Source: Chloroflexia bacterium
GTDB taxonomy: Bacteria > Chloroflexota > Chloroflexia > QHBQ01 > JADMIH01
Direction of reading: 5' to 3'
Assembly: GCA_036386675.1 (NCBI GenBank)
Contig: DASVVE010000063.1
Location: 2,279 to 66,278, forward strand
Length of the DNA stretch: 64,000 bases
Each line of letters begins with the position of its first letter. Position 1 is the first letter of the stretch. The notes beneath the pieces were generated by a model. The model was not told where the DNA came from. It ran no database searches and worked only from the letters and a program-made list of their open reading frames with translations. Shown here piece by piece: positions 8,601 through 54,735 of this stretch. Both the position numbers and the translations under genes were made by a program.

Positions 8601-11600
8601 GAGGGCGAACAGCACGAAAGTAAGCGCGCCGGTCGCGCCGCTGCCCCACAGCCAGCCCAACGTGCTTGCCACCCGGAGACGAGAAGCTTGCCACCAGGAC
8701 AGCGCGCTGTTGCCTGAAACCAGGAGGAGCGGCTTTCGGTAAGCCCCTGCAAGGACCAGATTCAGGATGAAGAGCACCGCCATGACGGTAAAAGGCATGT
8801 TTATGAGGTGCGGGTGCAAATCCGCGAACAGGAACGTCCAGTAGGGAAATTCGTTGATCGTGTCGTTGATGATACGGCTGGCGTCCCAGTAGTTGAAGCT
8901 GGGGTAGTAGTTGTACATCGATTGTTCGCCGAAGCCGAGCCTGCTGCCCAGGTCCGCGATACTGCGCCCGACATCCGGGAAGGTAATCATGACCCACTGA
9001 ATCAGGCCGTGCATGTTTCCGATCACCAGCATCAGGAAGCCGGCCAGTGCGCCAAATACGATGCCCGACTGCGATACCTGGCTGGTGCTCCCACGCCGCC
9101 TCTGGCTCCAGGCGACCAGGTTGTAGACGACGCTCATACCCGCCGTGAACGTGAGCGCATAGAACAGCGGTACAGCGAGGTTGAAGGCAATGGCCGGGTG
9201 GATGCCGAGCAGCTTTACCAGGCAGGCGATAATAAAGTAGCCGTAATAGTAATAGTTGATGAAACCGCCCGCGAAGAAGGGGTCAAGGGCGGGCATCCAC
9301 GGGCTGCGAAGCACCGCATTGAGGAAGCCGATTTCCATTGGCTTCTCACCACCCTGGAACGTGTGCCAGAGGTCGGGGTTCGCCATCCGCAGCGCGAGCA
9401 CGCCCGCGAAGGCAACCAGGAACACCGCTTCATACGCCAGTACGAGGTTCCGCTTCGTCCTGAAGAATTCTCGAATTTGGCTACCCGCGCCCAGCCGCCA
9501 ACAAAGTGTGGACAGCGCCGCCAGCATACCTACCATCAACAGGAGTCCCCAGATCGTGAAGGGAATCACCCTGGTGCTCGCGGCGATCCACATGCCCCAG
9601 GCTATCATCAGCAGGGCGGCTAGCTTGGCGACTGCGTAGCCACGGTCGGGCACGTTGCGGAAGACCGTAAACACCACCGGGAGCGCCAGCAGCCCAAGGG
9701 CCTCTACCAGCAACAGCCACAGAGCTACGGCGAACCACTGAGTCTGCTCCTGGCCCAACGGGTTCCAGGCGTAGTCATCTAGCTGCGGCAGCGTATTTAC
9801 AGGCTGGGTGTAGCTCAGCCCCTTGTCGTCCTCGACTTTGCCGTTCGAGGCATCTATGGACATGATCGGGCGGTTGAGCGCGGTGCTGAACAACATGCGG
9901 TACTGGTCGTCCGTCAGTTCGCTTACCTTCTTGAAGACGTCCACGCGCGGGTGGTCGTAGACGGTAAAGCTTTCGTCGGCAGGCTGGTCGTTTATCGCGA
10001 TGCCGAATAGTTCCGGCGTTACTTGCGTGGTGTTGGCGCTGACAAAGCCCAATTTCTCGGCAAACAGCAACTCGTAGTACTTGCTCTGAACCGGGTATTG
10101 CCAGGGCAGCCGCGGGATCGAGCCATAGAGGCGGTTGCTACTCATGATGATGTAGTCAGCACGCCGCAGCCAGGTCTTGATCCGCTCAAGCTCCAGGTCG
10201 GGCTGCGCGAAGTTATACAGCTCCATCTCGAAAGCGGTGGGGTAGCCGCTACGGTCCTGCCCGTTACGCGGGGGCAAGGAAATAGGCAGGCCGTAATCCC
10301 AGTGTTCGGTCGCCAGGGTGGCCTCTCTAGGCACGTTATCGTGAATCCACTCGGAAGCCTGCACCCGCGAGTGGGGTTGGCTGTACACGTTCATGAACGC
10401 CACAGCCCACAGGAAGGCCCAACCTATGCTCAGCGCGATAAGCGCGGGGAAGACGCCGCGCTGTAAACTCACCAGGCGAACTGCCCTCCGGGAGGAGTCC
10501 GCACTGGCCCTGGCAACGAACCGCTTGCGGGACCAAATAGCTCCGCGCACCAGGAATGCAGCACCGAGAATGCAAAAGATGGGGACCAGCGGCAGCATGT
10601 ACCGCATCCACTTGCTGAGCAGCGTGGCTATAGTCAGGAAGTAAGGGATGCCCGCCGAGAGGAGCAGAATCTCGGCCGGACGGCGACGAAGCGCCTGCCA
10701 AAAGGCGGCAAGGGCACCAATCACTGACATCAGGCCGGGCACCAAGCCCATGCCCCAGAAAACCATCTGTTCAAGTTGGTATACGACGGGCGCGGTCCCG
10801 ATGTACTGCCGCGTAAACGGCACCGGGCTTAGCCCCGACTGTACGGCCTGTTCGCCTCTGATTCTCCTGGACCAGGGGTTGGACTGGATAAGGGCGTCCA
10901 GGCCACCGCTGCTTAGCGTCGAGAAGTCAAAGCTCCAAAGGACGTAAGGCTCACCGACTGCGAAAGCCAGTAGCGAGAAAACCGCAGCCAGCAGAACGTA
11001 CTTCGCCCCACCGAGCAAGTGTCCGCCAAAACTACGCTCTCTCTCCTCGGTGGTGGCGGGGGAGACACCCACGGGGTCGCCGAATTCTGCGCCAAGCCTC
11101 CTCGTTCGTTTGCGATAGACCGCGCGAAGCACCACAGCGGCCACAATGACCAGCGCGATTGGCAGCACCGAGATCTTGCATGCGACCGCGAGGCCCAGGC
11201 AGGCACCGGCCGCTACCGCTACCCACCAACGCGGCCGTTGCATGAGCACTACGCTGAAATAAACCGCCCCCATGATGAAAGTCACGAGAAAGCTCTCAAC
11301 GATGAAGAAGTGGGCGATTTGAATGGCAGTGACCGCAAACCCATACAGGGCCGCCGCGATAAGGGCTGTGCCGCTGGAATAGAGTCGTCGGGCAACCAGG
11401 AAGACCAGCAGCACGGTAATAAGGTCGAAAATGGAGGCCAGAGAGCGTCCGATGATGGCGATGCCTTCTATGCTCCTTACCCAGTAGCCGTCCGGCTGCG
11501 TAGACGTAGGGGGCAGGACCGAGTCGAGAAGCCAGCCCGTCGCACGTTCCAGGTAGATCGGGAAGGCACCCCAGGGGTACTCGTTCAATTCGTCGCGCCG

Positions 11601-11876
11601 GGTGTTGAGCGTGCTCACATGCCAGTCGAAAATGTCCTCGTTCCTGGAGGGCCAGTTGATCTGCGGCGTCGTATAATTGAGGATCGACATCTCGTCGGGG
11701 TTCTGCCAGGTGCCCTGGTCGTACATGCGCCCGTAGAAGCGGAAGAAGGTGGCGCACGCCATAATCAACACGAGGAGCAACAACACCCTGTGCCGCCGCC
11801 AGAACGGCTCGCGTTCTCGCCCGGCTGCTTCCAGGGGCCGATCTACCGACAGGGTGGTAACATGCTGTGAAGACAA
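5682..11876 (-). CDS. Giant polytopic membrane protein: N-terminal GT-C/PMT-like glycosyltransferase module, two hydrophobic 'Chlor_Arch_YYY' (DUF2298-type) modules, C-terminal TPR repeats
   Basis: 2064 aa. N-terminal module has its first TM followed by a loop with NPDE (Asp-Glu as in GT39/GT83 loop 1), many TMs, then a soluble segment beginning EHWDYG at about residue 525. YYYxG motif (GGFINYYYYGYF, nt ~9240–9260). Long low-complexity acidic/Gly inserts. C-terminal ~160 aa are TPR-like repeats. Architecture matches the TIGR03662 description (N-terminal region + 2 YYY copies + 3–4 TPR). Confidence 0.8.
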   Translation of the reverse strand: MSSQHVTTLSVDRPLEAAGREREPFWRRHRVLLLLVLIMACATFFRFYGRMYDQGTWQNPDEMSILNYTTPQINWPSRNEDIFDWHVSTLNTRRDELNEYPWGAFPIYLERATGWLLDSVLPPTSTQPDGYWVRSIEGIAIIGRSLASIFDLITVLLVFLVARRLYSSGTALIAAALYGFAVTAIQIAHFFIVESFLVTFIMGAVYFSVVLMQRPRWWVAVAAGACLGLAVACKISVLPIALVIVAAVVLRAVYRKRTRRLGAEFGDPVGVSPATTEERERSFGGHLLGGAKYVLLAAVFSLLAFAVGEPYVLWSFDFSTLSSGGLDALIQSNPWSRRIRGEQAVQSGLSPVPFTRQYIGTAPVVYQLEQMVFWGMGLVPGLMSVIGALAAFWQALRRRPAEILLLSAGIPYFLTIATLLSKWMRYMLPLVPIFCILGAAFLVRGAIWSRKRFVARASADSSRRAVRLVSLQRGVFPALIALSIGWAFLWAVAFMNVYSQPHSRVQASEWIHDNVPREATLATEHWDYGLPISLPPRNGQDRSGYPTAFEMELYNFAQPDLELERIKTWLRRADYIIMSSNRLYGSIPRLPWQYPVQSKYYELLFAEKLGFVSANTTQVTPELFGIAINDQPADESFTVYDHPRVDVFKKVSELTDDQYRMLFSTALNRPIMSIDASNGKVEDDKGLSYTQPVNTLPQLDDYAWNPLGQEQTQWFAVALWLLLVEALGLLALPVVFTVFRNVPDRGYAVAKLAALLMIAWGMWIAASTRVIPFTIWGLLLMVGMLAALSTLCWRLGAGSQIREFFRTKRNLVLAYEAVFLVAFAGVLALRMANPDLWHTFQGGEKPMEIGFLNAVLRSPWMPALDPFFAGGFINYYYYGYFIIACLVKLLGIHPAIAFNLAVPLFYALTFTAGMSVVYNLVAWSQRRRGSTSQVSQSGIVFGALAGFLMLVIGNMHGLIQWVMITFPDVGRSIADLGSRLGFGEQSMYNYYPSFNYWDASRIINDTINEFPYWTFLFADLHPHLINMPFTVMAVLFILNLVLAGAYRKPLLLVSGNSALSWWQASRLRVASTLGWLWGSGATGALTFVLFALNLGALLVINSWDFPTYLGLAGGGAVVALLLLGRPRREWQAGAPAASDTSLRSHLTFREQVGMYGTALASVGLLAGLSLLAYLPFFLNFKAFYTAINALVDGGRIADTAEFMHRTTVGEFLVVWGLFVFIAASYLVYRLWHFPWTAAVDSLMGVLPRAAERPTTDLAPQQAFTLFGSGDRQRQGSGLVPALALPQGAPLPLDPVRFVRGSGEGTLDEQESTQEVDGRAAPEGTPPTNGPADSGGNGAVATTTDGNGNNPSSGGWLSAASAEADKTLKVRRRVTLGAVTATPFPGLSDSVDDSELGMHEVAVPAQSPVARTEAVEPGLIPLWAGLGLLGITAGLVVLQMVTGQWLLALLVALLGGIAATTLSTSRTAGNLFCGLLMMGALAVATGVELVYLADHLSRSDKFRMNTVFKFYMQVWVLWALAGASAIYYMLFGLREHALGTAGEREERLDETDSSLSAHGASVPTSSQTAVNSASHPAPRETQGSDGNRGAEPENWLVWSMEHASDATDVAQVEHTAPAADRVSGPAPLDITHGKDQEQEGPAIRWTVGRLVWLGAFALLLMSSLAFTFLGTPDRLVKRFGATPPAGTLNGLAFMTSAVFTADIGPDVPPVQVNLKYDYEAINWLNSNVKGAKVLAELPVEYYRAYGMRAAANTGLPMVVGGLHQEEQRYGWLVGDRRSDMNTFFTTPDVQVVLTLLSKYDIDYIYLGQLEQARAGATGMRKFEQLADPDVNILREVFRTQQPEGIAGTIIYEVVRDPARKVSTLVGAPVANSGIPGVSFTPIPAPTATPMPTPPTDDPELRALLDLVALDPLNRDNRFKLVDWYRQHNFPLDAARELETLVTQDPSNVALRHMLGDAYQQGGEPDKALKAWEDARDIDVNNPAGHNKVGIAYLDRKRMDDAIREFQATVERDPRFVEAYYHMGQAYQLKGDRENAIASYQKVIDNAPAGAEGWVDAARQRLTEVR

Positions 11877-12648: not shown

Positions 12649-13179
12649 CTACAAGTCGGTACCGGGCTTCTGTGCACGCTCCTCGTCTTCCCCTGGCGAG
12701 GGGTAATATAGATCGTCGCTGACTTCCGTCTCCGGGCTGTAAGGTGTTTCCGCGTGTGGCATCGCGTAGTGGATGTGGGGAAGCTCCACTGCCTCGCGAG
12801 AGCCGTTCGAGTCGACCGAGGGTGCAACAGTTTGGGCCGCCAGGTGCTCCGCGATGCGGGGCGGCATATCCCCCCCGGCCATGAACTGGGCTTTCTCCTC
12901 GTCCGTCATCATCTCCAGGACGGGGTGAATCTGTTCGGGTCTGCCGTTCCGGCGGGCGGGTGGTGTGTTGAAGGTGCTAGTGGTCGTAGTCGCCACATTG
13001 TTCAGCTCCGTGGAGATGTCCCGCCAGACGCTCCTCGCAGGCTCAACGGCACGGCGCACTTCGGCAATGCCCTTACCTATGGAGCGGGCGGCTTCGGGCA
13101 GGCGCTCAGGCCCTAGCACAATCAGCGCAACGAGCGCGATCAGCATTATCTCCCCGAAACCCATGCCGAATATTTCCAC
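12649..13179 (-). CDS. tatA: Twin-arginine translocase subunit, TatA/TatB family (length suggests TatB-like)
   Basis: 176 aa; N-terminus FGMGFGEIMLIALVALIVLGPERLPE (Tat TM + amphipathic-helix signature) followed by a charged tail. Confidence 0.75.
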   Translation of the reverse strand: MEIFGMGFGEIMLIALVALIVLGPERLPEAARSIGKGIAEVRRAVEPARSVWRDISTELNNVATTTTSTFNTPPARRNGRPEQIHPVLEMMTDEEKAQFMAGGDMPPRIAEHLAAQTVAPSVDSNGSREAVELPHIHYAMPHAETPYSPETEVSDDLYYPSPGEDEERAQKPGTDL

Positions 13180-13235
13180 GCTAACTCCTGGACCGGTTCT
13201 CGCGAAAAAGTGCGCCTGTCAGCAAGTAATATCCT

Positions 13236-13697
13236 CTAGCTCGCATTCTGCGGGGCACTTGAAGCTACCTCAGCCGACACCCAACGATAGTAATCGCCAT
13301 TTGCGTGCGCGGGCACAATTCTCAAAATGCAGGGTACATCATAGCTGTGGATTTGTTCGATCAGCGCTGCCGCGTCGTTGGCGCGCGAGGCCAAAGTCTT
13401 GCAGACCAGCACCATTTCTTGCGCGTCTGCCACTTCGTCGTTCCACCTGTATAACGACCGCGACGCGTAAATATTGGCGCAAGCGATTAGGCGTTCCGCC
13501 AGCAAGCGCGACCCGATGCCTGCGGCCTCTGTTTCGCTGCTACACGGGACATAAAGCATTGCGAGCGGATCGGCTGCCTGTGAACGTTCTTTCATGTTTA
13601 CACCATTATAACCATCGACGGTGCCGGTCACAATAGGGCCATTCGGCACGAGCCGTGGGCAATCGACGCTTTGGTCGGCTAACGTTTGAACTAGCAA
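13236..13697 (-). CDS. cutA: CutA1 divalent-cation tolerance protein family
   Basis: CutA-like C-terminus (SYDVPCILRIVP…GDYYRWV); the true start is probably the internal Met near 13595 (MKERSQ…). Confidence 0.7.
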   Translation of the reverse strand: MLVQTLADQSVDCPRLVPNGPIVTGTVDGYNGVNMKERSQAADPLAMLYVPCSSETEAAGIGSRLLAERLIACANIYASRSLYRWNDEVADAQEMVLVCKTLASRANDAAALIEQIHSYDVPCILRIVPAHANGDYYRWVSAEVASSAPQNAS

Positions 13698-13780
13698 GTA
13701 CCATGCGCTGTACTTTATAATGGAGATGCGTACCTCTACAACTACGTGTCGCCGCCTGAACCTCCAGAAGTGAGGACGCC

Positions 13781-15829
13781 TTGCTAGTCTTGTCGAAGCG
13801 GCCCCGGGTAAGTCTCAACGCCGATACCTGGAGCCTCACAATCGAAAACGCGCTTCGTGCCGCCGGGCAAAGGATTTTCTGGCGGCGCGCCCTGCGCATG
13901 GCGGCGCTTTCCCTACCTCTCCTTGTACTTAGTGTCGCGGCTTACATAGCCGTGCTCCGATTTACGCTCGCCAGCCTACCTGCCTGGCCCGTGCCGGTCG
14001 CGTTCGCCTGTTGGCTGCTGATAGTTGGACTGTGGACCCGCGCGCAACCGGTGACCAGCGCCGAGGCCGCCCGCTTCATAGACCACTCGCTCGGGCTTGA
14101 CGAACGGGTATCCACATCGGTCGAGTTGATAAACTCGGCCAGGCTGGTGCGTTCGCAAGCGCCCCGCACCGGAGTGCATTACGCATTGCTCGCGGATACC
14201 GCCGAGGCACTCAATGACCGGCTGCACGGTCTGCCCGGAGCACTTCGCTTCCGCTGGACCCGACTCAACGCGGTGGCGGTGGCGGTCGCGCTGCTGGCGC
14301 TCATGGGCGCGATGACAGTGCCCACGCAGGCCGAGTTTGCTCGCGGCGAGCGGAGCGCGTTGGCGAAAGCGGTCCAGGATCAGTTGGCGCAGGTCCAGGT
14401 GCTGCGCGCTGACGTCGAGGTCAACGAACTTCTTTCTTCGGACCTGAAAGCGTCCATCCTGCAGGAGCTTTCCTCGCTGGAAAGCACGCTCCAGAACTCC
14501 TCGCTCGACCAGGCGACGGCGATAGCTACCCTGGCTGACGCGGAGCAGCGACTGCGGGCTATGCTTGAAACGCCGTCGGCGGACTTCGATGGCCTGGTGG
14601 CGGCCGCGCAACTTGTGTGGAACGCCGCTGTCCAGAACCTGGAATGGGAGGTAGACCAGTCGCTTTATACCACCGACCTGGGGAGGGCCTCCGAAGCCTC
14701 GTTGTTCTTGAGCGAGAACGTGAGGAGAATGACTCCCAACGCGGAACGGCGCGTCGCGTTCAGCCTGGAGCGCGCCTCGGGGCAGGCGTCGGGACGCGAG
14801 CCGGACCTCGGTAGGGTGCTCGCGGAAGCCTCGACCTCGGTCCGCAGCCGCGACCATACCCCGGCAGTCCGCGCCCTGGTAGACGCCTCGGAGAAGTTCG
14901 CTGCTGCCAATAACCAACGAGAAGACTCTGTAGCGCTCGAAAATGTGCTGTCGCAACTGAACAAGGGACGCGAACAACTCGCGCAGGCCGGGCGGCCTCA
15001 GACCAAGAAGGCCCAGGTTGGGTTCCGACGCCGTGGCCCGGCAGCAGCCAACCCGAACGCAACCCCAGACCTCGGAAACTTTGACCCTGATGCCGAAGTT
15101 GCGGAAGGCGGGGCCAATGGCAGCCAGGGCAGCGAGAGCGTCAGCGGCCTTGGCCCGCTCGTGGGGGAGAACAACGTAGCCGCGTACGGTGGCTCGCAGT
15201 CGTCGGACGGGACGGGAGGGCAGCCGGCGCAGACTGAGGGTCAGGATGGCACTACCTCGCCAGGCAGCGGCCCTGGTGGTGGCACAAACGCGCAGGAGGG
15301 CGGGCAAGCAGAAGGCAGCCAGCAAACCTCAGGTGGTGGTACCGCCGGTGGCGGGACCTCCGACTCGGGCGAGCAAGGAACTCTCGGCGGCTCGGTGACG
15401 GGGCCGGTGGGAGGCGTGGGAGGAGCAATCAGCCACGTACCGAACCCCTCAGGGCAAGGCAACGCTACCGAGGCCAACAGCACCCCCGTGCCGGGCCAGG
15501 AGGAAAGCGATACAGGTGGGGAGCAAGTCTACGTACCCGGCGGTACTGAAGGCGATAGTGCCGGAATCGAGACGGCGCCTGAGGTAGCGGACGCGAACTC
15601 AGAAGAACCCAACACAGAAGGCGTGGGCGGCCGCATAGGTGAAGGGGATAGCGGTGGGGCCGACGTCTCCTCAGGCACGGGAGAAGGTGGTGCGGTACGC
15701 GTGCAGACACCGTACCGGGAAGTGCTGGCCGAGTACGCGCGCCAGGCTACGGAGGCTATCGATCGTGCTTATGTACCCCCTGATGCTAAGGAATATGTGA
15801 AGAATTACTTCTCCGAACTTGGTAAATAG
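13781..15829 (+). CDS. Membrane-anchored hypothetical protein: N-terminal TM helices, alpha-helical middle, long Gly/Ser/Thr/Glu-rich disordered region, conserved-looking C-terminal ~40 aa
   Basis: 682 aa; hydrophobic segments at the N-terminus; ~250 aa low-complexity (GGTSDSGEQGTLGG…); ends YREVLAEYARQATEAIDRAYVPPDAKEYVKNYFSELGK; directly upstream of MoxR. Confidence 0.6.
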   Translation: MLVLSKRPRVSLNADTWSLTIENALRAAGQRIFWRRALRMAALSLPLLVLSVAAYIAVLRFTLASLPAWPVPVAFACWLLIVGLWTRAQPVTSAEAARFIDHSLGLDERVSTSVELINSARLVRSQAPRTGVHYALLADTAEALNDRLHGLPGALRFRWTRLNAVAVAVALLALMGAMTVPTQAEFARGERSALAKAVQDQLAQVQVLRADVEVNELLSSDLKASILQELSSLESTLQNSSLDQATAIATLADAEQRLRAMLETPSADFDGLVAAAQLVWNAAVQNLEWEVDQSLYTTDLGRASEASLFLSENVRRMTPNAERRVAFSLERASGQASGREPDLGRVLAEASTSVRSRDHTPAVRALVDASEKFAAANNQREDSVALENVLSQLNKGREQLAQAGRPQTKKAQVGFRRRGPAAANPNATPDLGNFDPDAEVAEGGANGSQGSESVSGLGPLVGENNVAAYGGSQSSDGTGGQPAQTEGQDGTTSPGSGPGGGTNAQEGGQAEGSQQTSGGGTAGGGTSDSGEQGTLGGSVTGPVGGVGGAISHVPNPSGQGNATEANSTPVPGQEESDTGGEQVYVPGGTEGDSAGIETAPEVADANSEEPNTEGVGGRIGEGDSGGADVSSGTGEGGAVRVQTPYREVLAEYARQATEAIDRAYVPPDAKEYVKNYFSELGK

Positions 15830-15902
15830 TCTGCCTTGCTGGTGACGTGAGATATGCATTGTAGACCTTGCCGCCGTACTAAAGATTCCCAAGGAGCACC
15901 GA

Positions 15903-16946
15903 GTGGCACTGACTGAGAGAGAGACGAGCGCTGTTGGCACGGGCAACGTGACTCACCCGCGACGCGAGATGAGTCCGGAGGCATTTAGAGAACGGGCGGT
16001 GGCGATTGAGCAGGAAGTCGGCAAGGTAATCGTAGGGCAGCGCAACCTGATACACCAGGTGCTTGTCGCGCTCGTCGCGGGCGGCAATGTGCTCCTAGAG
16101 GGCGTGCCGGGCCTCGGCAAGACGGTGCTGGTAAGGACGCTTGCCGACGTGATCGACTGCCAGTTCAGCCGCGTGCAGTTCACTCCGGACCTGATGCCCG
16201 CCGACATCATCGGCACGAACATCCTCAACGAGGACGAGCATGGCCGCCGCGCCTTTGAGTTCCAGCCCGGCCCGGTGTTTGCCAATCTGCTGCTGGCCGA
16301 CGAAATCAACCGGGCTACCCCGAAGACGCAATCGGCGTTACTCGAGTCGATGCAAGAGGGCACCGTGTCGGTGGCTCGCACGATCTACGAGCTACCCAAG
16401 CCCTTCTTCGTGCTCGCCACGCAGAACCCCCTGGAAATGGAGGGCACGTATCCACTGCCGGAGGCGCAACTCGACCGCTTCTTCTTCAAGCTGGAAGTGG
16501 GCTTCCCTACCGCGGCGGAACTGATAGCTATCTCGGACCGCACAACTTCGGGAATCGATCCTAACGTGGGGCGGGTGGCGGATGCGCAGGACATCCTGGC
16601 TATGCAGCACCTTGCCCGACAGACGCCGATTGCCACACATGTCACGGCCTACGCGGTGCGCATATTGAGGGCCACCCACCCGGACAACCCTGAGGCGGTT
16701 CCCCTCGTGAAGCGCTACGTCCGCTACGGCGGCTCACCAAGGGCGTTACAGGCGATGATTCTCGCGGGCAAGATAATGGCGCTGCTCGACGGGCGTTACA
16801 ACGTGGCCTTCCGCGACATTCGGACGGCCGCGCTGCCCGCGTTGCGTCACAGGCTCATCCTGAACTTTGACGGCGAAGCGGAAGGCATCTCCCCGGATGC
16901 GATTGTCGCGGGCGTGTTGGAAGAAACGTCAGAAGAGATGAAGTAA
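15903..16946 (+). CDS. MoxR-family AAA+ ATPase
   Basis: 347 aa; Walker A GVPGLGKT, Walker B LLADEINRA; MoxR-typical length and C-terminal lid. Confidence 0.85.
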   Translation: MALTERETSAVGTGNVTHPRREMSPEAFRERAVAIEQEVGKVIVGQRNLIHQVLVALVAGGNVLLEGVPGLGKTVLVRTLADVIDCQFSRVQFTPDLMPADIIGTNILNEDEHGRRAFEFQPGPVFANLLLADEINRATPKTQSALLESMQEGTVSVARTIYELPKPFFVLATQNPLEMEGTYPLPEAQLDRFFFKLEVGFPTAAELIAISDRTTSGIDPNVGRVADAQDILAMQHLARQTPIATHVTAYAVRILRATHPDNPEAVPLVKRYVRYGGSPRALQAMILAGKIMALLDGRYNVAFRDIRTAALPALRHRLILNFDGEAEGISPDAIVAGVLEETSEEMK

Positions 16947-17025
16947 CTTGATGCCACCGAGTGGTATCGCTCCAGTGCGTAGCGGGGCAGAAGTTTGCCT
17001 GGCCGGCGCGGGAGAGCGTTAGGCG

Positions 17026-19035
17026 GTGGGTACGATGGGGCTATTGCAACCACTTGCGCTCCTGGCGCTACCCCTGGTCGGGTTCATTCTCGCACTTTAC
17101 TTGCTGCGATTCCGGCGGCCCAGCGCGCCGGTTGGTAGCCTCCACCTTTGGGACAATCTCACACGCGACCGAGAGGCGAACTCCCTGTGGCAGCGACTGC
17201 AACTCACGGGTCTCTTGCTGCTCCAGCTGCTGGTGATGTTGGCCCTCATCCTGGCGCTCGCGCGTCCGTGGGTACCGTCCGAGACTGCTGCCGGACAGAA
17301 CGCGATCATAATCGTGGACACGTCAGCAAGCATGGGCGCCATGGATGGCGGCACCAGTCCCCGGAAAAGCAGGCTTGAGGCCGCCCTTGAAAAGGCACGC
17401 AGCCTGGTGGACGACCTGCCGCAGGGTGCAATTGCCGCCATCATTACCTCTGATGAACATGCCGCCGTTCTTGTGGCCCCGACTGACGATAAGTCTAGGC
17501 TTCGGGACGGTCTTTCTGGGCTGCGGCCTCAACCTACGGGCACCAACATGTACGAGGCTATTCAACTCGCTTCGGTGCTCGCGCAGAAGCAATCGAACGC
17601 AGTAATATGGGTGCTCTCCGACGGTATATTCCCCGCGACAAGAGGGAACGCCGAACAGGTGCCGGCGGAGGTACGCTATTTCTCCGTGGGGCGCGCCGCT
17701 TCCAACCAGGCCATCACCGCCATATCCGTCGACCAGCGTGGGGGTAGTCTGGGGCTGTTTGTGCAACTCGCCAACGCCGACAACCTGACTGTGACGCGCA
17801 GACTGGACGTGCTTGTGGATGATGCTCACTGGAACGCGCGCACGGTGTCGTTGGGGCCGCTCGAGACGCAGGAATTGATCGTCGACGACCTGCCTATCGA
17901 CGGGCGAGTGATAGCGGCGCACCTGGACGGCCTCGATGAGCTTGAGATAGATGACACGGCCTGGACGGTGAACAGGGCGAGCGTGCCTGCCAACGTGCTT
18001 GTGGTGACGAACGGCAACAAGTTCCTGGAACTCTCCCTGGCGCTACTGCCGAATGTTACCCTTTACAAGGTGGCACCGGCCGAATACGACCCTGGCGCTA
18101 CCCTTGAAGGTATACCCTTTGACCTGACGGTGCTGGATGCCGGAGTCGTCTCACCTACCTTGTCCAGGCTGCCTGACGGTAACATGCTCATCTTTGAACC
18201 GAAAGCCTCAACGTCTATCTTCACAATCGGGGACCAGATTATTGCGCCGGTGCCTTCGTTCTCTCCCCTGGAGTCGGGGGGGCTGTCCAGCACGTCCGAG
18301 TCCTCCGGACGCGACCCACTGCTGCGGTTCGTGGACCTCTCCAACTTACATGTCTCCCAGGCGGCCCAGGTCAACCTGCCCACCTGGGGCCACGCCGTAC
18401 TCGGGAGCGACAAAGGTCCTCTGATCATCGCAGGCGAGGAGAGTGGCCGTAAGGTGAGCATTGTTGCCTTTGACCTACAGCAGAGTGACCTTCCATTACA
18501 GATGGCGTACCCATTGCTCATGCGCAACCTTGTCACGTACCTGCTGCCTGACCCTACAGGAGGGGTGCCCGTAGCCGTCACGCCAGGCTCGATTGTCACG
18601 GTGGATGCCGTCGACCAGGCGGTGAACAAGCTGCTGGTGGAAGACCCCTCCGGCAAGGAGTGGACATACGATCTGGTACCGGAACGGAGGCGGGTAGCCT
18701 TCCCGGAGACACGGCAGCCTGGAGTGTATTACATCACCCAGTACGCCCTCGAGGAAATAGTTGCTCAGGAGGCGTTTGCCGTCAACCTGGCCTCCCGTGA
18801 CGAGTCAGCCATCCGCCCCAACCCTGAGCCTGGCTTGCCCGTAGGCGTCCGACCGAACGCCGGTGCAACGACGGTGTCGGACGGCAACCCGTTCCGCCGC
18901 GAGTTTTGGCCTCATGTTGCGGTTGCGGGCTTCGCTGTGTTACTGGCTGAGTGGTTTATTGCACAACGTCTCACACTACGACGCGCCTTCCTGGAATGGC
19001 GCAACCGCCGTGCCCTTCGCAAGTTGAGCACTTAG
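17026..19035 (+). CDS. BatA-like protein: N-terminal double-TM aerotolerance-regulator domain + von Willebrand A domain + long C-terminal region + C-terminal TM
   Basis: 669 aa; N-terminus LLALPLVGFILALYLLRFRRP (BatA_N/TIGR02226-type); vWA MIDAS IIVDTSASM; C-terminal hydrophobic helix. Confidence 0.75.
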   Translation: MGTMGLLQPLALLALPLVGFILALYLLRFRRPSAPVGSLHLWDNLTRDREANSLWQRLQLTGLLLLQLLVMLALILALARPWVPSETAAGQNAIIIVDTSASMGAMDGGTSPRKSRLEAALEKARSLVDDLPQGAIAAIITSDEHAAVLVAPTDDKSRLRDGLSGLRPQPTGTNMYEAIQLASVLAQKQSNAVIWVLSDGIFPATRGNAEQVPAEVRYFSVGRAASNQAITAISVDQRGGSLGLFVQLANADNLTVTRRLDVLVDDAHWNARTVSLGPLETQELIVDDLPIDGRVIAAHLDGLDELEIDDTAWTVNRASVPANVLVVTNGNKFLELSLALLPNVTLYKVAPAEYDPGATLEGIPFDLTVLDAGVVSPTLSRLPDGNMLIFEPKASTSIFTIGDQIIAPVPSFSPLESGGLSSTSESSGRDPLLRFVDLSNLHVSQAAQVNLPTWGHAVLGSDKGPLIIAGEESGRKVSIVAFDLQQSDLPLQMAYPLLMRNLVTYLLPDPTGGVPVAVTPGSIVTVDAVDQAVNKLLVEDPSGKEWTYDLVPERRRVAFPETRQPGVYYITQYALEEIVAQEAFAVNLASRDESAIRPNPEPGLPVGVRPNAGATTVSDGNPFRREFWPHVAVAGFAVLLAEWFIAQRLTLRRAFLEWRNRRALRKLST

Positions 19036-19046
19036 TAGAAGGAAAC

Positions 19047-21746
19047 ATGGAGCTACCGTTCAGCATCACCGAGCCGCGCGCTCTCATACTGCTTCTTGCC
19101 GTCCCGCCTGTCGTGTGGCTTGGGATATTGACAGCGCGCGCTCGCCCCAGGGACCGCTCGCGCATCGCCACGAGCACCGTCATTCGCGCCCTCATCCTGA
19201 CATTTATCACGCTTGCGGTCGCCGGCACCCAGTTCATCGCGTCTGGAGGCCCCCTGAATGTTGTATTCCTGGTGGACCGATCGGCCAGTGTGTCCGAGGC
19301 AAGCAAGCAGTCCTCGTTCGACTTCGTGCGACAAGCCATTGGGGCTATGGGGCCGGACGACCGGGCGGCGGTGGTGTTGTTCGGAGAGAATGCCATACTC
19401 GACCGGGCATTGAGCGCGGATACCATATGGGCTGCCGCGGGCAAGGAGCCTTCGGCGCTGGCGACCGACATTGCCGACGCGATCCAGGTGGGCACCGCAC
19501 TTTTCCCCGAGGGCGGCGCGAAGAGGCTCGTGCTCCTGAGTGACGGGGTGGAAACGGTCGGTGAGGCCAGGAGCATAGCAGCGGGAGAGGTGCTGTCCGG
19601 TATCCAGTTATCGGTGGTACCCCTCGGCGAGACCGCACAGAATGAAGTAGCGGTGGACCGGGTGGTAAGCCCGAACAGTGTGCCTTCGGGCCAGCAGATA
19701 CCCGTAAGGGTACTTGTAAAGAGCAACAGCGACAGGGCGGCGACCGTGACACTGTACGACGGCGACACCCCTGTCGCGACCGAGGACGCGCAACTGAAGG
19801 CTGGTGACAACGTCCTTACCTTTTCCACCGAGGCCCGCGAGCAGGGCTTTCACGTTCTCAAGGCGCGAGTAGACTCCGTCGATGACCGCTTCAGCGAAAA
19901 CAACGAAGCACTGTCTTTCACCATCGTGAAGCGACCGCCCACCGTCCTCATTGTCAGTGGTGCCGAGGCGGATAGCCTTGCGCTTCAAAATGCGCTGGAG
20001 GCGAGTGCAATCGAGGTGGATGTTGTTGCGTCGGTTGGCCTCCCCCGCGAGGCAAAGAACATCGGGCAGTACGATGCTATAGTCCTTGCCAATGTTTCGG
20101 CTAGCTCGCTGGAAATCGAAGGGCAGCAGGTGTTGCAAAGCTACGTGCGAGACATGGGACGCGGCCTCATCATGATAGGCGGCGACCTCAGTTACGGGGC
20201 CGGCGGCTACACTAGGTCCCCTATCGAAGAGGTGCTGCCGGTGCGCATGGACGCACGCACCTCGGAGGAGCGGGCCTCCCTTGCAATGACCTTCGTCGTG
20301 GACAAGAGCGGCAGCATGGGCCGATGTCACTGTGGAGGCAACCAGCAGTTCAACCCCAACATGCGGACGGAGTTCGGTGAGAGCAAGATTGAGCTGGTGA
20401 AGCAGGCTATAACCAAGGCCACCACGCTCCTCAATTCCAGCGACCAGGTGGGCGTAATCACATTCGATGAGCAACCAACCTGGCTGGCGCGCCTGCAACC
20501 CATAGCGGAACTTGGCGAGCAACGACTCGAACAGCTGCTACAGCCGGTGGAGGCGCAGGGCAACACAGACATGTTTGCTGCCCTCTCGCAGTCCGTAGAG
20601 TCGCTTGAGACCAGTAACGCACAGCTAAAGCACATCGTCTTACTGGGCGATGGTTGGAGCAAGCACTCGGATTACGACCAACTCCTGGAGCGTATGTCCG
20701 CCGGCAATATCACGCTTTCCACAGTAGGTGTCGGCGATGGCGCTGACGAGCTGATGCACGACCTCGCGACCAGGGGAGGAGGCCGCTTCTATGCAGCTAA
20801 GGATGTCACCACGGTGCCCGACGTCCTGCTCAAGGAAACGATCCGGCTCGCAGGCTCATACTACGTCGAGGAGGCGTTCACCCCGGCGGTGGAGCGCGCT
20901 AGCCCTATCCTGAACGGGATCGATACGGGAGCCATGCCGCCCCTGCTCGGCTACAATGCCAGCACGATCAAACCGGAGGCGGATCTGATACTCCGCTCTC
21001 CTCGCGGCGACCCGCTCCTCGCACAGTGGCAGTATGGACTCGGGCGTGCAGTCGCCTGGACCTCGGATGTGAAGGGACAGTGGGCGGCTGACTGGGTGGA
21101 GTGGCCCCAGTTCGGCAAGTTTATGGGACAGATGGTCAGTTGGACGCTCTCCCGGCAAGACAGCATTGGTCTGGAGGCTACGTTCTCAAGCCGGGCTGAC
21201 GCACAGGGAGTCGCGCAGGAAGTCGCCGTGCGAGTGGACACTGTCACGGTCACGGGCGCGCCCCGCAACTTCCTGCCGACGAGCCTGGTGATTACTGACA
21301 CCCTGGGCATCTCGACTACAGTTGAGGTTTCACCGCGCTCGCCTGGGGTGTACGATGGGATCGCGCACGGGCTGAGTCCGGGCGCGTATGCCGCCACAGT
21401 GGAACAGGTGCAGGCCGAAACCGGGGAGCTGGTGGAGCGGCTGGAAACCGGCTTCATCGTACCTTATCCGAGCGAATACCGGCTCTCCGGCGACTCGACG
21501 GCTGGCGCACAGGCATTGATGGCTGACCTAGCGCAGCTCGGTGGTGGAAGGGTACTCGAGATAACGCAGCCAGCTTCAGCGTTTACTCACGACATATCCC
21601 CTGAGCCACGGCGCTTAGCGATGTGGCCGTGGCTGATACTGGCGTCCATATTGCTTTTCCCGCTGGACGTAGCGGTACGGCGTGTGAGTCTTACGCCCCG
21701 CGAATTGTGGCGCTTGCTGAGGGGGCGAACACCGGACGATGCCTGA
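19047..21746 (+). CDS. BatA/BatB-like protein with N-terminal double-TM domain and two vWA domains, C-terminal TM
   Basis: Start reassigned to the ATG at 19047 (RBS AGGAA 8 nt upstream, 11 nt after the upstream stop) rather than the ORF-track 18951. vWA 1 VFLVDRSASVSE, vWA 2 TFVVDKSGSMG; C-terminal TM WPWLILASILLFPL. Confidence 0.7.
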   Translation: MELPFSITEPRALILLLAVPPVVWLGILTARARPRDRSRIATSTVIRALILTFITLAVAGTQFIASGGPLNVVFLVDRSASVSEASKQSSFDFVRQAIGAMGPDDRAAVVLFGENAILDRALSADTIWAAAGKEPSALATDIADAIQVGTALFPEGGAKRLVLLSDGVETVGEARSIAAGEVLSGIQLSVVPLGETAQNEVAVDRVVSPNSVPSGQQIPVRVLVKSNSDRAATVTLYDGDTPVATEDAQLKAGDNVLTFSTEAREQGFHVLKARVDSVDDRFSENNEALSFTIVKRPPTVLIVSGAEADSLALQNALEASAIEVDVVASVGLPREAKNIGQYDAIVLANVSASSLEIEGQQVLQSYVRDMGRGLIMIGGDLSYGAGGYTRSPIEEVLPVRMDARTSEERASLAMTFVVDKSGSMGRCHCGGNQQFNPNMRTEFGESKIELVKQAITKATTLLNSSDQVGVITFDEQPTWLARLQPIAELGEQRLEQLLQPVEAQGNTDMFAALSQSVESLETSNAQLKHIVLLGDGWSKHSDYDQLLERMSAGNITLSTVGVGDGADELMHDLATRGGGRFYAAKDVTTVPDVLLKETIRLAGSYYVEEAFTPAVERASPILNGIDTGAMPPLLGYNASTIKPEADLILRSPRGDPLLAQWQYGLGRAVAWTSDVKGQWAADWVEWPQFGKFMGQMVSWTLSRQDSIGLEATFSSRADAQGVAQEVAVRVDTVTVTGAPRNFLPTSLVITDTLGISTTVEVSPRSPGVYDGIAHGLSPGAYAATVEQVQAETGELVERLETGFIVPYPSEYRLSGDSTAGAQALMADLAQLGGGRVLEITQPASAFTHDISPEPRRLAMWPWLILASILLFPLDVAVRRVSLTPRELWRLLRGRTPDDA

Positions 21747-22512
21747 CAGGATGCGGACCGTCGATCTCAATGCGGACGTAGGTGAGAGTTTCGGGCCGTG
21801 GCCCATGGGCCACGACCGGGAAATCATGCCTTTCATCACATCCGCAAACCTTGCCTGTGGCGGTCACGCGGGCGACCCTGACGTCATGGCCGCCACGGTC
21901 CGGCTCGCGGCAAGTCATGGTGTCAATGTCGGTGCGCACCCTGGTTACCCGGACCTGGCCGGCTTTGGTAGACGAGCCATCGCCTTCAGCCCGGACGAGG
22001 TGCGGAACTTCGTACTATATCAGGTGGGGGCGCTCTGGGCCATCGCGCGCGCCTGTGGAGTTGAACTGCGCCACGTCAAACCCCATGGGGCGCTATACAA
22101 TGTGGCAGCGAGAGATCGCCTAACCGCCGAAGCTATAGCCGGTGCCGTACGGGAGTTCTCACGCGAGTTACCCCTGGTGTGCCTGGCCGGGTCAGCTGCC
22201 GAGGAAGTGTCGCTCGAAATGGGGCTTCCCACGCTCGCCGAGGGCTTCGCAGACCGCGCCTACGAACCCGGTGGAGCACTGCGAGACCGTAAGCTGCCGG
22301 CGAGCGTACACCACGATCCCGCGGCGGTGGCAGCTCAGGTCTTGGGTCTGGCCAGGGGCGAAGTGCGAGCCGTCGACGGAAGCACTCTGCAAGTGCGTGT
22401 GGACACAATCTGCCTGCACAGTGACACCCCGGAAGCCCCGTTGTTCGCTCGTGTCGCCCGCCAGGCGCTCGAAGATGCCGGCTACGTTGTTGCGCCCCCA
22501 ACGAACAGCTGA
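21739..22512 (+). CDS. pxpA: 5-oxoprolinase subunit A (LamB/YcsF family, PxpA)
   Basis: 257 aa; DLNADVGESFG…GHD N-terminal motif; alternative start at 21751. Confidence 0.85.
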   Translation: MPDRMRTVDLNADVGESFGPWPMGHDREIMPFITSANLACGGHAGDPDVMAATVRLAASHGVNVGAHPGYPDLAGFGRRAIAFSPDEVRNFVLYQVGALWAIARACGVELRHVKPHGALYNVAARDRLTAEAIAGAVREFSRELPLVCLAGSAAEEVSLEMGLPTLAEGFADRAYEPGGALRDRKLPASVHHDPAAVAAQVLGLARGEVRAVDGSTLQVRVDTICLHSDTPEAPLFARVARQALEDAGYVVAPPTNS

Positions 22513-22513
22513 G

Positions 22514-24166
22514 ATGAACGCAGGACGTACGGCGATCATAGACCGCATGGGCGAGAGCGCGCTGCTCGTGACGCTTGGAAGTGGCATTTCGCCGTCGCTG
22601 AATCGGGCCGTGCACGCGTTGGCGGACAATCTACGGAAGCTGGCGCTTAGAGGTGTTTGCGACATCGTGCCGGCTTATGCGAGTGTGCTCGTAACCTTCG
22701 AGGACTCGGTGGTCGCCGCTGAGGAAGTGGCCGAGCACGTGCGGCATGCCCTTCCTCTTGCAGGTCCCACGCCGGACGCTCCTCCGCGCCGGCATAACAT
22801 TCCAGTTGCGTATGGCGGCGAGTACGGTCCTGATCTCGAAGCCCTGTCGGCCGCGCTCGGACTGACGCCAACCGAAGTGGTCCGAAGACATACCAGCCGA
22901 ACATATCTCGTCTACTTCCTTGGCTTCATGCCAGGTTTTGCATACCTCGGAGGACTAGAGCCGTCTATTGCTGCACCGCGTCTTGGAAGCCCAAGGGTGC
23001 GCGTTCCGGTAGGCTCAGTTGGAATAGCGGGCGAGCAAACGGGGGTGTATCCTCTCGCAAGCCCCGGTGGTTGGCAACTCGTGGGCCGCACCGGGATCGT
23101 GCTGTGGGACGTCAATAGGAACCCACCGGCACTCCTGGCTCCGCACGACGAGGTACACTTCCTGGCCTCAGACGGACTCACATTGAGCAAGCCCACGTAT
23201 CACGAGCCTGATGGACCGCGCGAACCCGGCTCAATTCCGGTCTTGACAGTGGAGGCACCCGGAGCACTAACTCTGGTTCAAGACATGGGTCACCCAGGAT
23301 ATAGTCACCTTGGACTAAGCCCTGGAGGCGCGATGGACCCCTTCGCGCTGGCGGTCGCGAACAGCCTGGTCGGCAGCCCCCCTGGCGCTGCTGCCCTTGA
23401 GATAACCTGGTCGGGACCAACGTTGAGAGCACTTGCTACTACGGTCATCGGCATGGCCGGCAGTGACCTTGGCTGTCAGGTCGACGGGCGGCCGGTGCCT
23501 TGTGGTATCAGTTGGTTGGTACGTGCCGGTAGCGAAGTACGCTTCACCGGACGTGGGGCAAGCAGTGCGGCACGATGTTATCTTGCGGTCGCTGGAGGTT
23601 TCAGCGTGCCGACACTGCTGGGTTCTCGGTCCACTTACCTACCGGGCGGCTTCGGTGGCTATGGCGGGCGGCAGTTGCGCGCGGGCGATACTTTGTACGC
23701 CGCCGCGTCCGGTAAGTCACCGGCGGAGCTTGCGGGGAAAATAGCTTCCATCCTGCCTGCTACTGTGCCGCCGGGTGGTAGCCTGAGATACGTGCCGTAC
23801 CTGGGAGCGGGCTGTGTAGCCACAACGTTGAGGGAGCACGCTGATAGCTTGACCTACGAGGTTAGTGTTGCCAGTGATAGGATGGGTGTACGATTGTTAC
23901 CTGAGCAGGAGGGAGAACTAGCCTGGAGCGGTGGGGAGCTAACGTCCTTCGGAGTGCCCCGTGGGGCCATCCAGCTGCCACCGGGCGGCACCCCAGTAGT
24001 GCTGGGTGCAGACCACCAAACAACCGGCGGGTATCCGGTGCTAGGCGTCGTCGCAAGGGGTGATTGGCCGCTACTCGCACAACTGAGACCCGGCTCAAAA
24101 GTGCGGTTGAAGCCGGTCACGCTGGCAGAGGCCAGGGCTGCACGGCGTGGCTGGCCCCTCTCGTAA
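22514..24166 (+). CDS. Fused 5-oxoprolinase subunits B and C (KipI/allophanate-hydrolase-subunit-1 + KipA/subunit-2 fusion)
   Basis: Start at the ATG 22514, 1 nt after the pxpA stop. The ORF-track 22142 start lies inside pxpA. N-terminal ~220 aa is PxpB-like, C-terminal ~330 aa PxpC-like. Confidence 0.75.
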   Translation: MNAGRTAIIDRMGESALLVTLGSGISPSLNRAVHALADNLRKLALRGVCDIVPAYASVLVTFEDSVVAAEEVAEHVRHALPLAGPTPDAPPRRHNIPVAYGGEYGPDLEALSAALGLTPTEVVRRHTSRTYLVYFLGFMPGFAYLGGLEPSIAAPRLGSPRVRVPVGSVGIAGEQTGVYPLASPGGWQLVGRTGIVLWDVNRNPPALLAPHDEVHFLASDGLTLSKPTYHEPDGPREPGSIPVLTVEAPGALTLVQDMGHPGYSHLGLSPGGAMDPFALAVANSLVGSPPGAAALEITWSGPTLRALATTVIGMAGSDLGCQVDGRPVPCGISWLVRAGSEVRFTGRGASSAARCYLAVAGGFSVPTLLGSRSTYLPGGFGGYGGRQLRAGDTLYAAASGKSPAELAGKIASILPATVPPGGSLRYVPYLGAGCVATTLREHADSLTYEVSVASDRMGVRLLPEQEGELAWSGGELTSFGVPRGAIQLPPGGTPVVLGADHQTTGGYPVLGVVARGDWPLLAQLRPGSKVRLKPVTLAEARAARRGWPLS

Positions 24167-53745: not shown

Positions 53746-54735
53746 ATGGGGAAACGCGTGATGTCAAAGCCTAACTCGTCCAGACGCAGGTCCAATCCAA
53801 CAGATAAGACGATACCTGACGGACGCAACAACACCTCTGTTGCTCCATTTGCTGGAGGTTTTGTAGGTTTGGGACTTGGTATTCTGGGCAATTTGTTGGC
53901 TAGTTGGCTTGAACCTGCTATTCTGCAGGACGCCTTTTTACCCTGGAACTTGGTAGCTATTATTGCGCTAATTGTAATCGGTGTCGTCCTGGGAGTACGG
54001 GCGCAGGGTGGGAAATTCACTTGGTTCCTCAACCAAAACACATACTGGTCACTTCTGATCTTTGTTGGAGTTGCGTTGCTAGTTATTATTTTGCTCAGCG
54101 TGATAACCCGTAGGACGCCAGTTCTGTACTTCGTAATTGATACTACTGCTAAAATGCAGCCAATCTTCAATGATGTGCGTCGCGAGGTCCAATTATCAAC
54201 CAGTCTCGTTCCCCGCACTTTTAAGATTGGACTTCGAACCTATGGTGGAAGCGCTGACAATATTCCAAACTGCCAGGACACGGAGCAACTATTGCCCCTT
54301 CAGACTTATGACAACTTCAGTGCACGCATAGATAGTGTGCTTGCAAGGTTACAGCCCAGGGGCAATGGCTCTTTGACAGGGGCGGTGCTAGAGGCTATTT
54401 ACACAGATCTTGCGAACGAAAACAATCACATTCAGATGCTGGTCGTAACTTCTGGAACCGATCCGCTTTGCGATCCAACGGGTGGCGGAATATTGGAAAG
54501 GCGTGCAAAGGAGGTCAAGGACAATTTGGAGGTGATTATTATCAGTATTGGAGAGATAGACGCGAGCCGCAAACAGATCCTCAACAGCTACGCTGAAGCA
54601 TTTAACGGCAGGCATATAAATGTACCTACGGCGGCGTCATTGCATTCTATCGTGCAGAATGCCGCTTACTATGGATATGGCTATTACGGCGATGGTACAT
54701 TCCCTGGCGAGCCGGATGCAACACTGGTGCCGTAA
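53746..54735 (+). CDS. Membrane protein with 3 N-terminal TM helices and a degenerate vWA-like domain
   Basis: 329 aa; TMs at ~40–120; VLYFVIDTTAKM…GLRTYGG…VVTSGTD reminiscent of a vWA fold with a non-canonical MIDAS; Tyr/Gly-rich C-terminus; AT-rich codons. Confidence 0.55.
   Translation: MGKRVMSKPNSSRRRSNPTDKTIPDGRNNTSVAPFAGGFVGLGLGILGNLLASWLEPAILQDAFLPWNLVAIIALIVIGVVLGVRAQGGKFTWFLNQNTYWSLLIFVGVALLVIILLSVITRRTPVLYFVIDTTAKMQPIFNDVRREVQLSTSLVPRTFKIGLRTYGGSADNIPNCQDTEQLLPLQTYDNFSARIDSVLARLQPRGNGSLTGAVLEAIYTDLANENNHIQMLVVTSGTDPLCDPTGGGILERRAKEVKDNLEVIIISIGEIDASRKQILNSYAEAFNGRHINVPTAASLHSIVQNAAYYGYGYYGDGTFPGEPDATLVP

Follow-up and report, generated by a model that had tools for sequence, protein, structure and literature searches.

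The 64-kb stretch of Chloroflexia DNA analyzed here, which we call the window, carries at 13781-21746 a cluster of four co-directional open reading frames (ORFs) on the + strand, in which a MoxR-type AAA+ ATPase is encoded together with three membrane proteins. This cluster is probably a derivative, lacking DUF58, of a five-gene membrane MoxR cluster of Chloroflexota, related to the Bat operon and to the Rhizobium leguminosarum operon RL3499-RL3502, in which MoxR would act on an envelope complex from its cytoplasmic face. The widespread MoxR/BatA-type system is already known; what is new is the clade-specific form without DUF58 and a conserved family of partner proteins represented by the first gene. 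That gene, g1 (13781-15829), encodes a 682-amino acid (aa) membrane protein fitting no Pfam or NCBIfam family. It is followed by g2 (15903-16946), a 347-aa soluble ATPase of the MoxR-proper (AAA_3) kind, by g3 (17026-19035), a 669-aa BatA-type membrane protein bearing a domain of the von Willebrand factor A (vWA) type, and by g4 (19047-21746), a membrane protein of 899 aa counted from its ATG. The ORF calls agree with the coordinates and order given in a first-pass annotation of this DNA. The 11-nt spacing that it reported between the last two genes was recovered by measurement, from the g3 stop codon (19033-19035) to the g4 ATG (19047), a start that is backed by alignments of homologs and preceded by a GAAGGA motif within the gap. 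MoxR and g3 are separated by 79 nt. A scan for promoters and terminators over 13100-22600 found no more of them than shuffling would lead one to expect, and thus says nothing about transcription units.

None of the four cluster proteins matches DUF58 (PF01882), and a hidden Markov model (HMM) made from the DUF58 proteins linked to 48 such clusters, searched with filters off against all six frames of the window, gave a best E-value of 0.53, so the initial observation that the cluster is without DUF58 extends to the whole 64 kb. Gene order and domain content likewise bear out that MoxR is directly followed by two membrane-anchored vWA proteins with a metal ion-dependent adhesion site (MIDAS). 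Each GTDB species, represented by a single genome, was surveyed with an alignment of g4 and the conserved seed peptide GSMG[RKE]CHC, and g4 relatives were found encoded in at least 536 genomes. The best 80 loci, almost all from Chloroflexota metagenome-assembled genomes (MAGs), were analyzed with about 22 kb inspected per related locus, the six-frame ORFs of all loci being labeled with HMMs for g1, MoxR, DUF58, g3 and g4. The cluster proved to be conserved in relatives: MoxR and g3 occur together in 68 non-redundant loci, arranged in every case as g1-MoxR-[DUF58]-g3-g4. Of these 68 loci, 48 have DUF58 and 20, the window among them, do not. The loci with DUF58 include members of Anaerolineae, Limnocylindria, Caldilineaceae, Ardenticatenaceae and Thermoflexales, and also genomes labeled ‘Chloroflexia bacterium’. 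Where DUF58 is present the gap between MoxR and g3 is at least 909 nt, and where it is absent the gap is 10-208 nt, which is too short to hold a DUF58 remnant.

The loci without DUF58 form one clade on a neighbor-joining tree of MoxR, indicating that DUF58 was lost once and that the other genes were then kept for a long time. The four genes keep the same order in at least 20 species-level genomes of this Chloroflexia MAG lineage, and that order is retained at 35% g1 identity and at 42% g4 identity, while the DUF58-containing order is seen at 37% g4 identity. Since a normally universal component is missing, one could suppose that its loss inactivated the system and that the other genes are on their way out. 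We give hardly any credence to such decay: in 20 species-level genomes each of the four ORFs is undamaged, and the MIDAS residues, the Walker motifs, the loop of the BatA domain and the g1 motifs are invariant in the clade that lacks DUF58.

The cluster-linked DUF58 proteins have no transmembrane helix, cross-hit VWA_2 and carry DTSKSM, a DxSxS motif, and they are therefore best described as soluble cytoplasmic proteins of the vWA fold. It is possible, if somewhat unlikely, that the window's system is functionally canonical and that a DUF58 protein encoded elsewhere serves MoxR in trans, only the position of the gene having changed. The presence of DUF58 in all 48 other Chloroflexota loci suggests that it is important, only 64 kb is visible here and about 22 kb at each related locus, and the MoxR proteins of the DUF58-less clade differ from 43 DUF58-linked MoxR proteins by just six diagnostic substitutions, which is no strong sign of re-adaptation. 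Against this, none of the 20 loci has a DUF58 gene in its fetched flanks, the tight operon linkage is otherwise strictly kept, and the loss is old, spanning g4 identities from 93% down to 42%. Two of the six substitutions, H153G and T156S, lie downstream of Walker B, within the segment MQEGTVS (MoxR residues 153-156, at 16359-16370).

The assignment of g2 as a MoxR ATPase, made in the first-pass annotation, is upheld by Pfam matches to AAA_3 (2e-62, 209.3 bits against a cut-off of 27) and AAA_lid_2 (4e-14, 52.6 bits against 22.7). Its closest solved structure is 2r44 (1.4e-75 over residues 28-341), and the Walker A (GVPGLGKT) and Walker B (LLADEINR) motifs are intact in the translation. The protein also passes the cut-off of bpMoxR (PF20030), with 38.6 bits against 27, and many Chloroflexota are filamentous, both of which would suit an anti-phage or conflict system of the MoxR-vWA kind known from multicellular prokaryotes. 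Such a role seems highly improbable to us, as the AAA_3 match is far higher at 209 bits and a Pfam scan of the cluster proteins finds neither a beta-propeller nor an effector domain. PADLOC, too, assigns no family to g1, g3 or g4 and gives MoxR only weak, generic P-loop matches, and the cluster is vertically conserved and syntenic rather than patchy.

The first of the two vWA proteins, g3, begins with a transmembrane helix, a conserved Arg-rich loop and a second transmembrane helix, and continues with a MIDAS-containing vWA domain, a beta-sandwich, a domain of putative GATase1-like fold, another beta-sandwich and a C-terminal transmembrane helix. The first-pass annotation had given both vWA proteins a BatA-type N-terminus. 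This holds for g3, where Pfam BatA_N matches residues 4-81 with 42 bits (cut-off 25.9); the N-terminal 95 residues of g4 give no BatA match even at E <= 1 and agree with it in topology alone. With the NCBIfam model TIGR02226, proposed as a check, g3 falls narrowly below the cut-off (21.6 bits against 23.05) while passing Pfam BatA, and g4 does not match. The vWA domain of g3 (VWA_2, residues 94-200, 61.5 bits) matches in Foldseek the structures of BatB (3ibs, E 7e-7) and of an aerotolerance-related protein of Bacteroides fragilis (4jdu). Some g3 homologs do match PF01882, raising the idea of a DUF58 fused into g3, but these matches (profile positions 36-142) overlap the VWA_2 region and so are cross-hits within the vWA fold; g3 is, moreover, equally long in loci with and without DUF58.

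Beyond its vWA domain, residues 200-669 of g3 gave no Pfam match in a fragment scan. The AlphaFold2 model of the protein (mean predicted local distance difference test score, pLDDT, of 79.8) matches STM3548 (2gk3) in Foldseek with an E-value of 1.6e-5 and a TM-score of 0.56 on the target over 266 columns, presumably through the alpha/beta domain at residues ~311-506 (17956-18543, +), which is modeled with a pLDDT of 80-90. The putative GATase1-like, STM3548-like fold of this domain is a call from structure, because profile alignments by hhalign of the middle domain with the g4 GATase1_like domain, and of the beta-sandwich segments, were not significant (probabilities of 0.1-22%). The best-conserved segment of g3 is the Arg-rich loop. 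Both g3 and g4 end, as had been noted, in a C-terminal hydrophobic helix, which in g3 (residues 624-646, 18895-18963) carries E626, W628, E642 and W643, invariant in 40-42 homologs. Invariant acidic and aromatic residues are unusual for a simple anchor, which suggests contacts between helices within the membrane.

The second vWA protein, g4, likewise starts with a transmembrane helix, an Arg-rich loop and a transmembrane helix, followed by a first vWA domain, an Ig-like segment (a sub-threshold match to Big_3_5), a GATase1_like domain into which a second vWA domain is inserted, about 150 aa with no assigned domain and a C-terminal transmembrane helix. Pfam places VWA (1e-23), VWA_2 (4e-21) and GATase1_like (PF07090, 1e-19), the last with 71.5 bits against a cut-off of 27 and in two stretches on either side of the second vWA domain. 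The first vWA domain occupies residues ~71-195 (19257-19631, +), with MIDAS residues D77, S79, S81, T140 and D166 complete, and the second, residues 415-593 (20289-20825, +), with D419, S421, S423, T507 and D535. The N-terminal half of the GATase1_like domain lies at residues 312-401 (19980-20249, +; 4e-8), covering profile positions 33-141 of 247 and aligning with residues 32-151 of 3soz, and the C-terminal half at residues 614-700 (20886-21146, +; 1.4e-12), covering positions 158-245 of 247 and aligning with residues 171-244 of 2gk3. Searched against the PDB, the g4 profile finds 3soz (3e-16) and 2gk3 (6e-15), each in the same two flanking stretches. The earlier description of g4 as carrying two MIDAS-containing vWA domains was therefore right, but the domains are not in tandem, since the second sits between the halves of a GATase1_like domain that had been overlooked.

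Both g4 vWA domains have the full DxSxS...T...D set, invariant in the g4 alignment, and together with that of g3 all three vWA domains of the cluster keep complete MIDAS residues. Directly after the first MIDAS loop of the second g4 domain (DKSGSMGR-CHC) stand C427, H428 and C429 (20325-20333), kept in each of the 12 homologs aligned, whose identity goes as low as 37%. This Cys-His-Cys motif may, to judge by its sequence, be a redox site or bind an additional metal. Because 2gk3 matches both the g3 model and the GATase1_like halves of g4, the two proteins can be modeled on a single layout of N-terminal transmembrane hairpin, MIDAS vWA domain, beta-sandwich, GATase1-like domain and C-terminal anchor.

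The protein encoded ahead of MoxR, g1, is one of a large family for which Pfam and NCBIfam have no matching model. A hypothetical protein from a Chloroflexia MAG is 100% identical to it, and the start of g1 may lie at 13790, as the NCBI product has 679 aa. An exhaustive profile search with the N-terminal 388 aa found 575 representatives (clusters at 50% identity) with E <= 1e-3, of which 301 also stayed within E <= 1e-10, and no Pfam or NCBIfam model fits g1 or up to 72 of its relatives. Of the 54 loci whose sequence reaches far enough upstream, 52 have a recognizable g1 ahead of MoxR, and the unannotated proteins in that position are homologous to it by hhalign, with a probability of 99.4% for a DUF58-containing locus and 99.5% for a deep DUF58-less one. 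The proposal that g1 is linked to the MoxR system, and is not an unrelated neighbor, is thus borne out. Its suggested identity with DUF4175 (PF13779) or TIGR02302 had to be dropped. These are long alphaproteobacterial membrane proteins with N-terminal transmembrane helices and a low-complexity extracytoplasmic part, a general layout much like that of g1, but neither g1 (at E <= 10) nor its fragments match them in sequence, and they are not among the families reported at E <= 10 for alignments of 9, 10 or 72 g1 relatives, scans that listed the 25 most frequent families. The only recurrent signals are weak and of spectrin-like or coiled-coil character, among them SbsC spectrin-like repeats in 20 of 72 relatives and DUF4404 in 17 of 72. 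One distant relative is labeled ‘DsbB’ with no other supporting evidence, the rest being labeled ‘hypothetical protein’.

As first described, g1 is an anchored protein with a helical middle and a conserved-looking C-terminal box, and its architecture can now be given more closely: three hydrophobic helices, the helical middle, a disordered stretch and the box. AlphaFold2 predicts a confident, all-helical structure for residues 13-410, with pLDDT above 90 for most of 21-400, and a Foldseek search of the model against the PDB gave no significant match (best E 0.16, TM-score below 0.15). Between the second and third transmembrane helices lies a segment of three helices, predicted by the positive-inside rule to be cytoplasmic (residues 87-161, 14039-14263, +), whose helices 93-104, 109-122 and 131-150 have a pLDDT of about 90 or more. 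This segment holds the most conserved motif of the family, AARF(L/I)D..LGLDERVST.VEL, in which R109 is invariant and A97, D101, L106, E108 and T112 are nearly so among 116 family members. Residues 181-410 (14321-15010, +) would form an extracytoplasmic all-helical rod, with helices over 183-402 mostly above a pLDDT of 90, so that what had been called a coiled-coil-like middle is indeed helical but is predicted as a confident multi-helix rod, relatives giving weak matches to spectrin-like repeats. The disordered tail, first put at about 250 aa, comes to about 210: a Gly/Ser/Thr/Glu/Gln-rich linker at residues 431-642 (15071-15706, +) with pLDDT below 50, which aligns poorly and varies in length across the family. 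The C-terminal box that follows (residues 643-682, 15707-15826, +) is predicted to be a helix-turn-helix (helices 645-662 and 667-681, pLDDT 60-75). It is found at the end of nearly all full-length family members with the consensus vPY..V...Y...A..AL....IP...K.YVRDYFS.LeP, and P666, Y676 and F677 are invariant.

Taken with the survey, these features bear on the suggestion that the arrangement was an undescribed one. In the narrow sense it is atypical, but rather than a separate kind of system it is a clade-specific derivative of the five-gene cluster. The reading of the cluster as a distinct, undescribed MoxR-vWA chaperone-adaptor type, with tandem vWA domains and no DUF58 as its hallmarks, could draw on the absence of DUF58, on the lack of a family assignment for g1 and on our having found no published description of this composition. 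We think it improbable, and the neighborhood survey largely refutes it, orthologs of the same g1, MoxR, g3 and g4 occurring with DUF58 in 48 related loci. The g4 vWA domains, moreover, are not tandem, and in structure the vWA domain of g3 matches BatB and the aerotolerance protein of B. fragilis. The five-gene clusters (among them Chloroflexus aggregans CP001337 and loci L005 and L028-L086) have orthologous g1, MoxR, g3 and g4 genes in the same order and orientation and with the same domain layouts, adjacent g4 being absent in C. aggregans, and they differ from the window's clade in that a soluble DUF58 protein of about 300 aa is encoded after MoxR and before g3. In C. aggregans, a cultured species, the series is g1-like, MoxR, DUF58, DUF402 and g3, and both the inserted DUF402 gene and the lack of an adjacent g4 set it apart from the window.

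Members from more distant Chloroflexota add FHA, ABC-transporter and other unannotated genes. In three such loci (L005 1-5917, L089 2223-11279 and L090 1600-11890), an unannotated protein of about 850 aa and an ABC ATPase precede g1, with a membrane component downstream of the ATPase that is an ABC-2 permease by Pfam in L005 and has no annotation in L089 and L090. Between g1 and MoxR comes a gene for an unannotated protein of about 200 aa, an FHA-domain protein stands further upstream in L089 and L090, and in L090 DUF58 and g3 are separated by an extra 890-aa gene of no assigned family. More than five genes may have made up the ancestral system.

Outside Chloroflexota, a close parallel is the Bat operon of Bacteroides, Borrelia (bb0170-bb0176) and Leptospira (bat), where, as here, a MoxR-proper ATPase is encoded beside proteins that combine a double-transmembrane BatA_N region with a MIDAS vWA domain. 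The likeness extends to structure, in the match of the g3 vWA domain to 3ibs and 4jdu. As for a second such protein, g4 has the topology followed by a vWA domain, and its N-terminal 95 aa give no BatA match at E <= 1. Bat clusters differ in having DUF58 and the TPR- and SH3-containing proteins BatC-E; a Pfam scan of g1-g4 finds no TPR or SH3 domain, and thus no accessory of the BatC, BatD or BatE type. BatA and BatB are also short (about 330 aa) and have neither GATase1-like nor Ig-like ectodomains, whereas g3 and g4 are large, and no g1-type protein has been described for Bat clusters. In R. leguminosarum, RL3499-RL3502 (Vanderlinde et al. 2011) reportedly comprises MoxR, DUF58 and two transmembrane proteins, mutants having defects in cell shape and envelope. 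The first membrane protein is said to have a TIGR02226/BatA-type N-terminus and the second to be GATase1-like, which would parallel g3 and g4. The Rhizobium operon resembles the window's cluster in pairing MoxR with two large membrane proteins and departs from it in having DUF58; we know of no g1 equivalent there. By analogy with the Rhizobium operon, the biological role of the Chloroflexota cluster is probably envelope maintenance.

The pairs NorQ/NorD, RavA/ViaA and CbbQ/CbbO resemble the window's cluster in another way, in that a MoxR AAA+ ATPase is coupled to a MIDAS vWA protein without DUF58. They differ in subfamily, the ATPase here being MoxR proper (AAA_3), unlike NorQ, RavA and CbbQ, and in compartment. 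Their vWA partner is cytoplasmic, while hydropathy and positive-inside counts place all of the window's vWA domains outside. For g3 and g4, these counts predict a short N-terminus outside, the Arg-rich loop inside, the vWA and GATase1-like ectodomain outside, and a C-terminal transmembrane helix leading to an Arg-rich tail inside, a topology in accord with the experimental mapping of the Borrelia BatA-like protein BB0173, which has three transmembrane helices and a periplasmic vWA domain (PMC5700661). For g1 they predict the N-terminus inside, a transmembrane hairpin, a cytoplasmic domain of 75 residues, a third transmembrane helix and about 500 residues outside. By the positive-inside rule and the BB0173 homolog, we infer that the three MIDAS vWA domains, together with the GATase1-like domains and the g1 rod, linker and box, would all lie outside the cytoplasmic membrane, and that MoxR, like DUF58 in relatives, would be cytoplasmic. 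The vWA domains of g3 and g4 would then be in a different compartment from MoxR, unlike those of the soluble-partner pairs.

This arrangement raises the question of how MoxR reaches its partners. In the MoxR/vWA pairs examined to date, the ATPase is contacted directly by its vWA partner. For NorQ/NorD, a finger of the NorD vWA domain enters the pore of the NorQ ring, a mode suggested to hold generally among MoxR/vWA pairs (as cited in PMC11432383). Were it general, a vWA partner in MoxR's own compartment would be needed, and the only vWA-fold protein sharing that compartment in the Chloroflexota cluster is DUF58, which is missing here. We propose that a MoxR hexamer works from the cytoplasmic side on a membrane complex of g1, g3 and g4. 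Its action would run through DUF58, as a soluble adaptor of vWA fold, in most Chloroflexota, and in the DUF58-less lineage the ATPase might engage the membrane subunits directly, by way of g1 residues 87-161, the g3 BatA loop and the Arg-rich tails, or else use a DUF58 protein encoded elsewhere. The outcome would be assembly or remodeling of an envelope complex whose outward MIDAS sites bind acidic ligands, and the tethered C-terminal box of g1 is a candidate for such a ligand. More specifically, g1 could be an unrecognized obligate subunit whose segment 87-161 docks MoxR without DUF58 and whose box is the MIDAS ligand of g3 and g4, a speculative and in our judgment unlikely elaboration.

Several points weigh against our preferred interpretation of the cluster as a DUF58-less derivative working in this way. 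The topology is predicted, the contacts of MoxR with cytoplasmic loops and of MIDAS sites with the C-terminal box are pure inference, and the cluster is known in Chloroflexota from genes alone. A DUF58 gene could sit beyond the 64 kb covered here and the roughly 22 kb covered at each related locus, and the GATase1-like assignment in g3 is one structural match (TM-score 0.56) that sequence profiles do not confirm. Deletion of bat genes in Leptospira biflexa, moreover, produced no phenotype (PMC3557215).

The genes around the cluster suggest one further role for MoxR, that of a cytoplasmic export chaperone, possibly connected to the Tat pathway, which would hold or unfold g1, g3, g4 or other cargo ahead of translocation. 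In the window and in 12 related loci, g1 has a divergent TatA/B gene upstream of it, and TatA/B and TatC genes lie upstream and co-directional in C. aggregans. In addition, Mycobacterium tuberculosis MoxR1 is reported to be needed for Tat export of RipA (PMC4810496). We find this role very doubtful, as most other loci have no Tat genes in their flanks, among them the deeper DUF58-less branch (L004, L024-L027) and the loci with DUF58, and inspection of the g3 and g4 translations finds no twin-arginine signal before the first hydrophobic helix.

The cluster's neighbors encode CutA1, TatA/B, a Nudix protein and 5-oxoprolinase subunits. The TatA/B (12649-13179, -) and CutA1 (13236-13697, -) genes stand divergently just upstream of g1 and recur in 12 and 8 other loci, respectively, of the inner DUF58-less clade; in C. 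aggregans, TatA/B and TatC precede the g1-like gene on the same strand (L087 3717-5242). On the other side, in 21739-24166, the ATG (21739) of a LamB/YcsF (PxpA-like) gene overlaps the end of g4 (stop ending at 21746) and is followed by a fused CT_C_D and CT_A_B gene, corresponding to PxpB/PxpC-like 5-oxoprolinase subunits; the adjacency of g4 and LamB/YcsF was not found in the more distant loci checked (L004, L005 and L087). About 1.9 kb upstream of the cluster, an ORF of 2064 aa (5682-11876, -) has a syntenic counterpart of 2083 aa in locus L002 with PMT/PMT_2, DUF2298 and TPR matches, and from its sequence it looks like a giant glycosyltransferase-like membrane protein. Far downstream, at 53746-57091, two ORFs of 329 and 431 aa with no Pfam match adjoin a gene of the phage integrase family (56033-57091, 1e-32) in a low-GC stretch (0.487 at 54-56 kb against about 0.61 elsewhere in the window), and this region is probably an integrated mobile element.

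Operons of the MoxR-DUF58-BatA type are among the most widespread bacterial clusters without a known client or mechanism, and we see the present finding as an incremental but useful refinement under which current views stand. The existence of a monophyletic and long-lived lineage without DUF58 means that DUF58 need not be encoded in cis, and it provides a comparative handle on the residues of MoxR, g1, g3 and g4 that changed with its loss. The g1 family, with 575 representatives at 50% identity, linkage to MoxR and no Pfam or NCBIfam match, adds a testable component to the system, and the predicted outward position of the MIDAS domains sharpens the question of how an AAA+ ATPase in the cytoplasm can communicate with domains on the other side. 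If the proposed role of g1 were true, a MoxR AAA+ ATPase would control an extracytoplasmic vWA assembly across the membrane without a cytoplasmic adaptor of the vWA fold.

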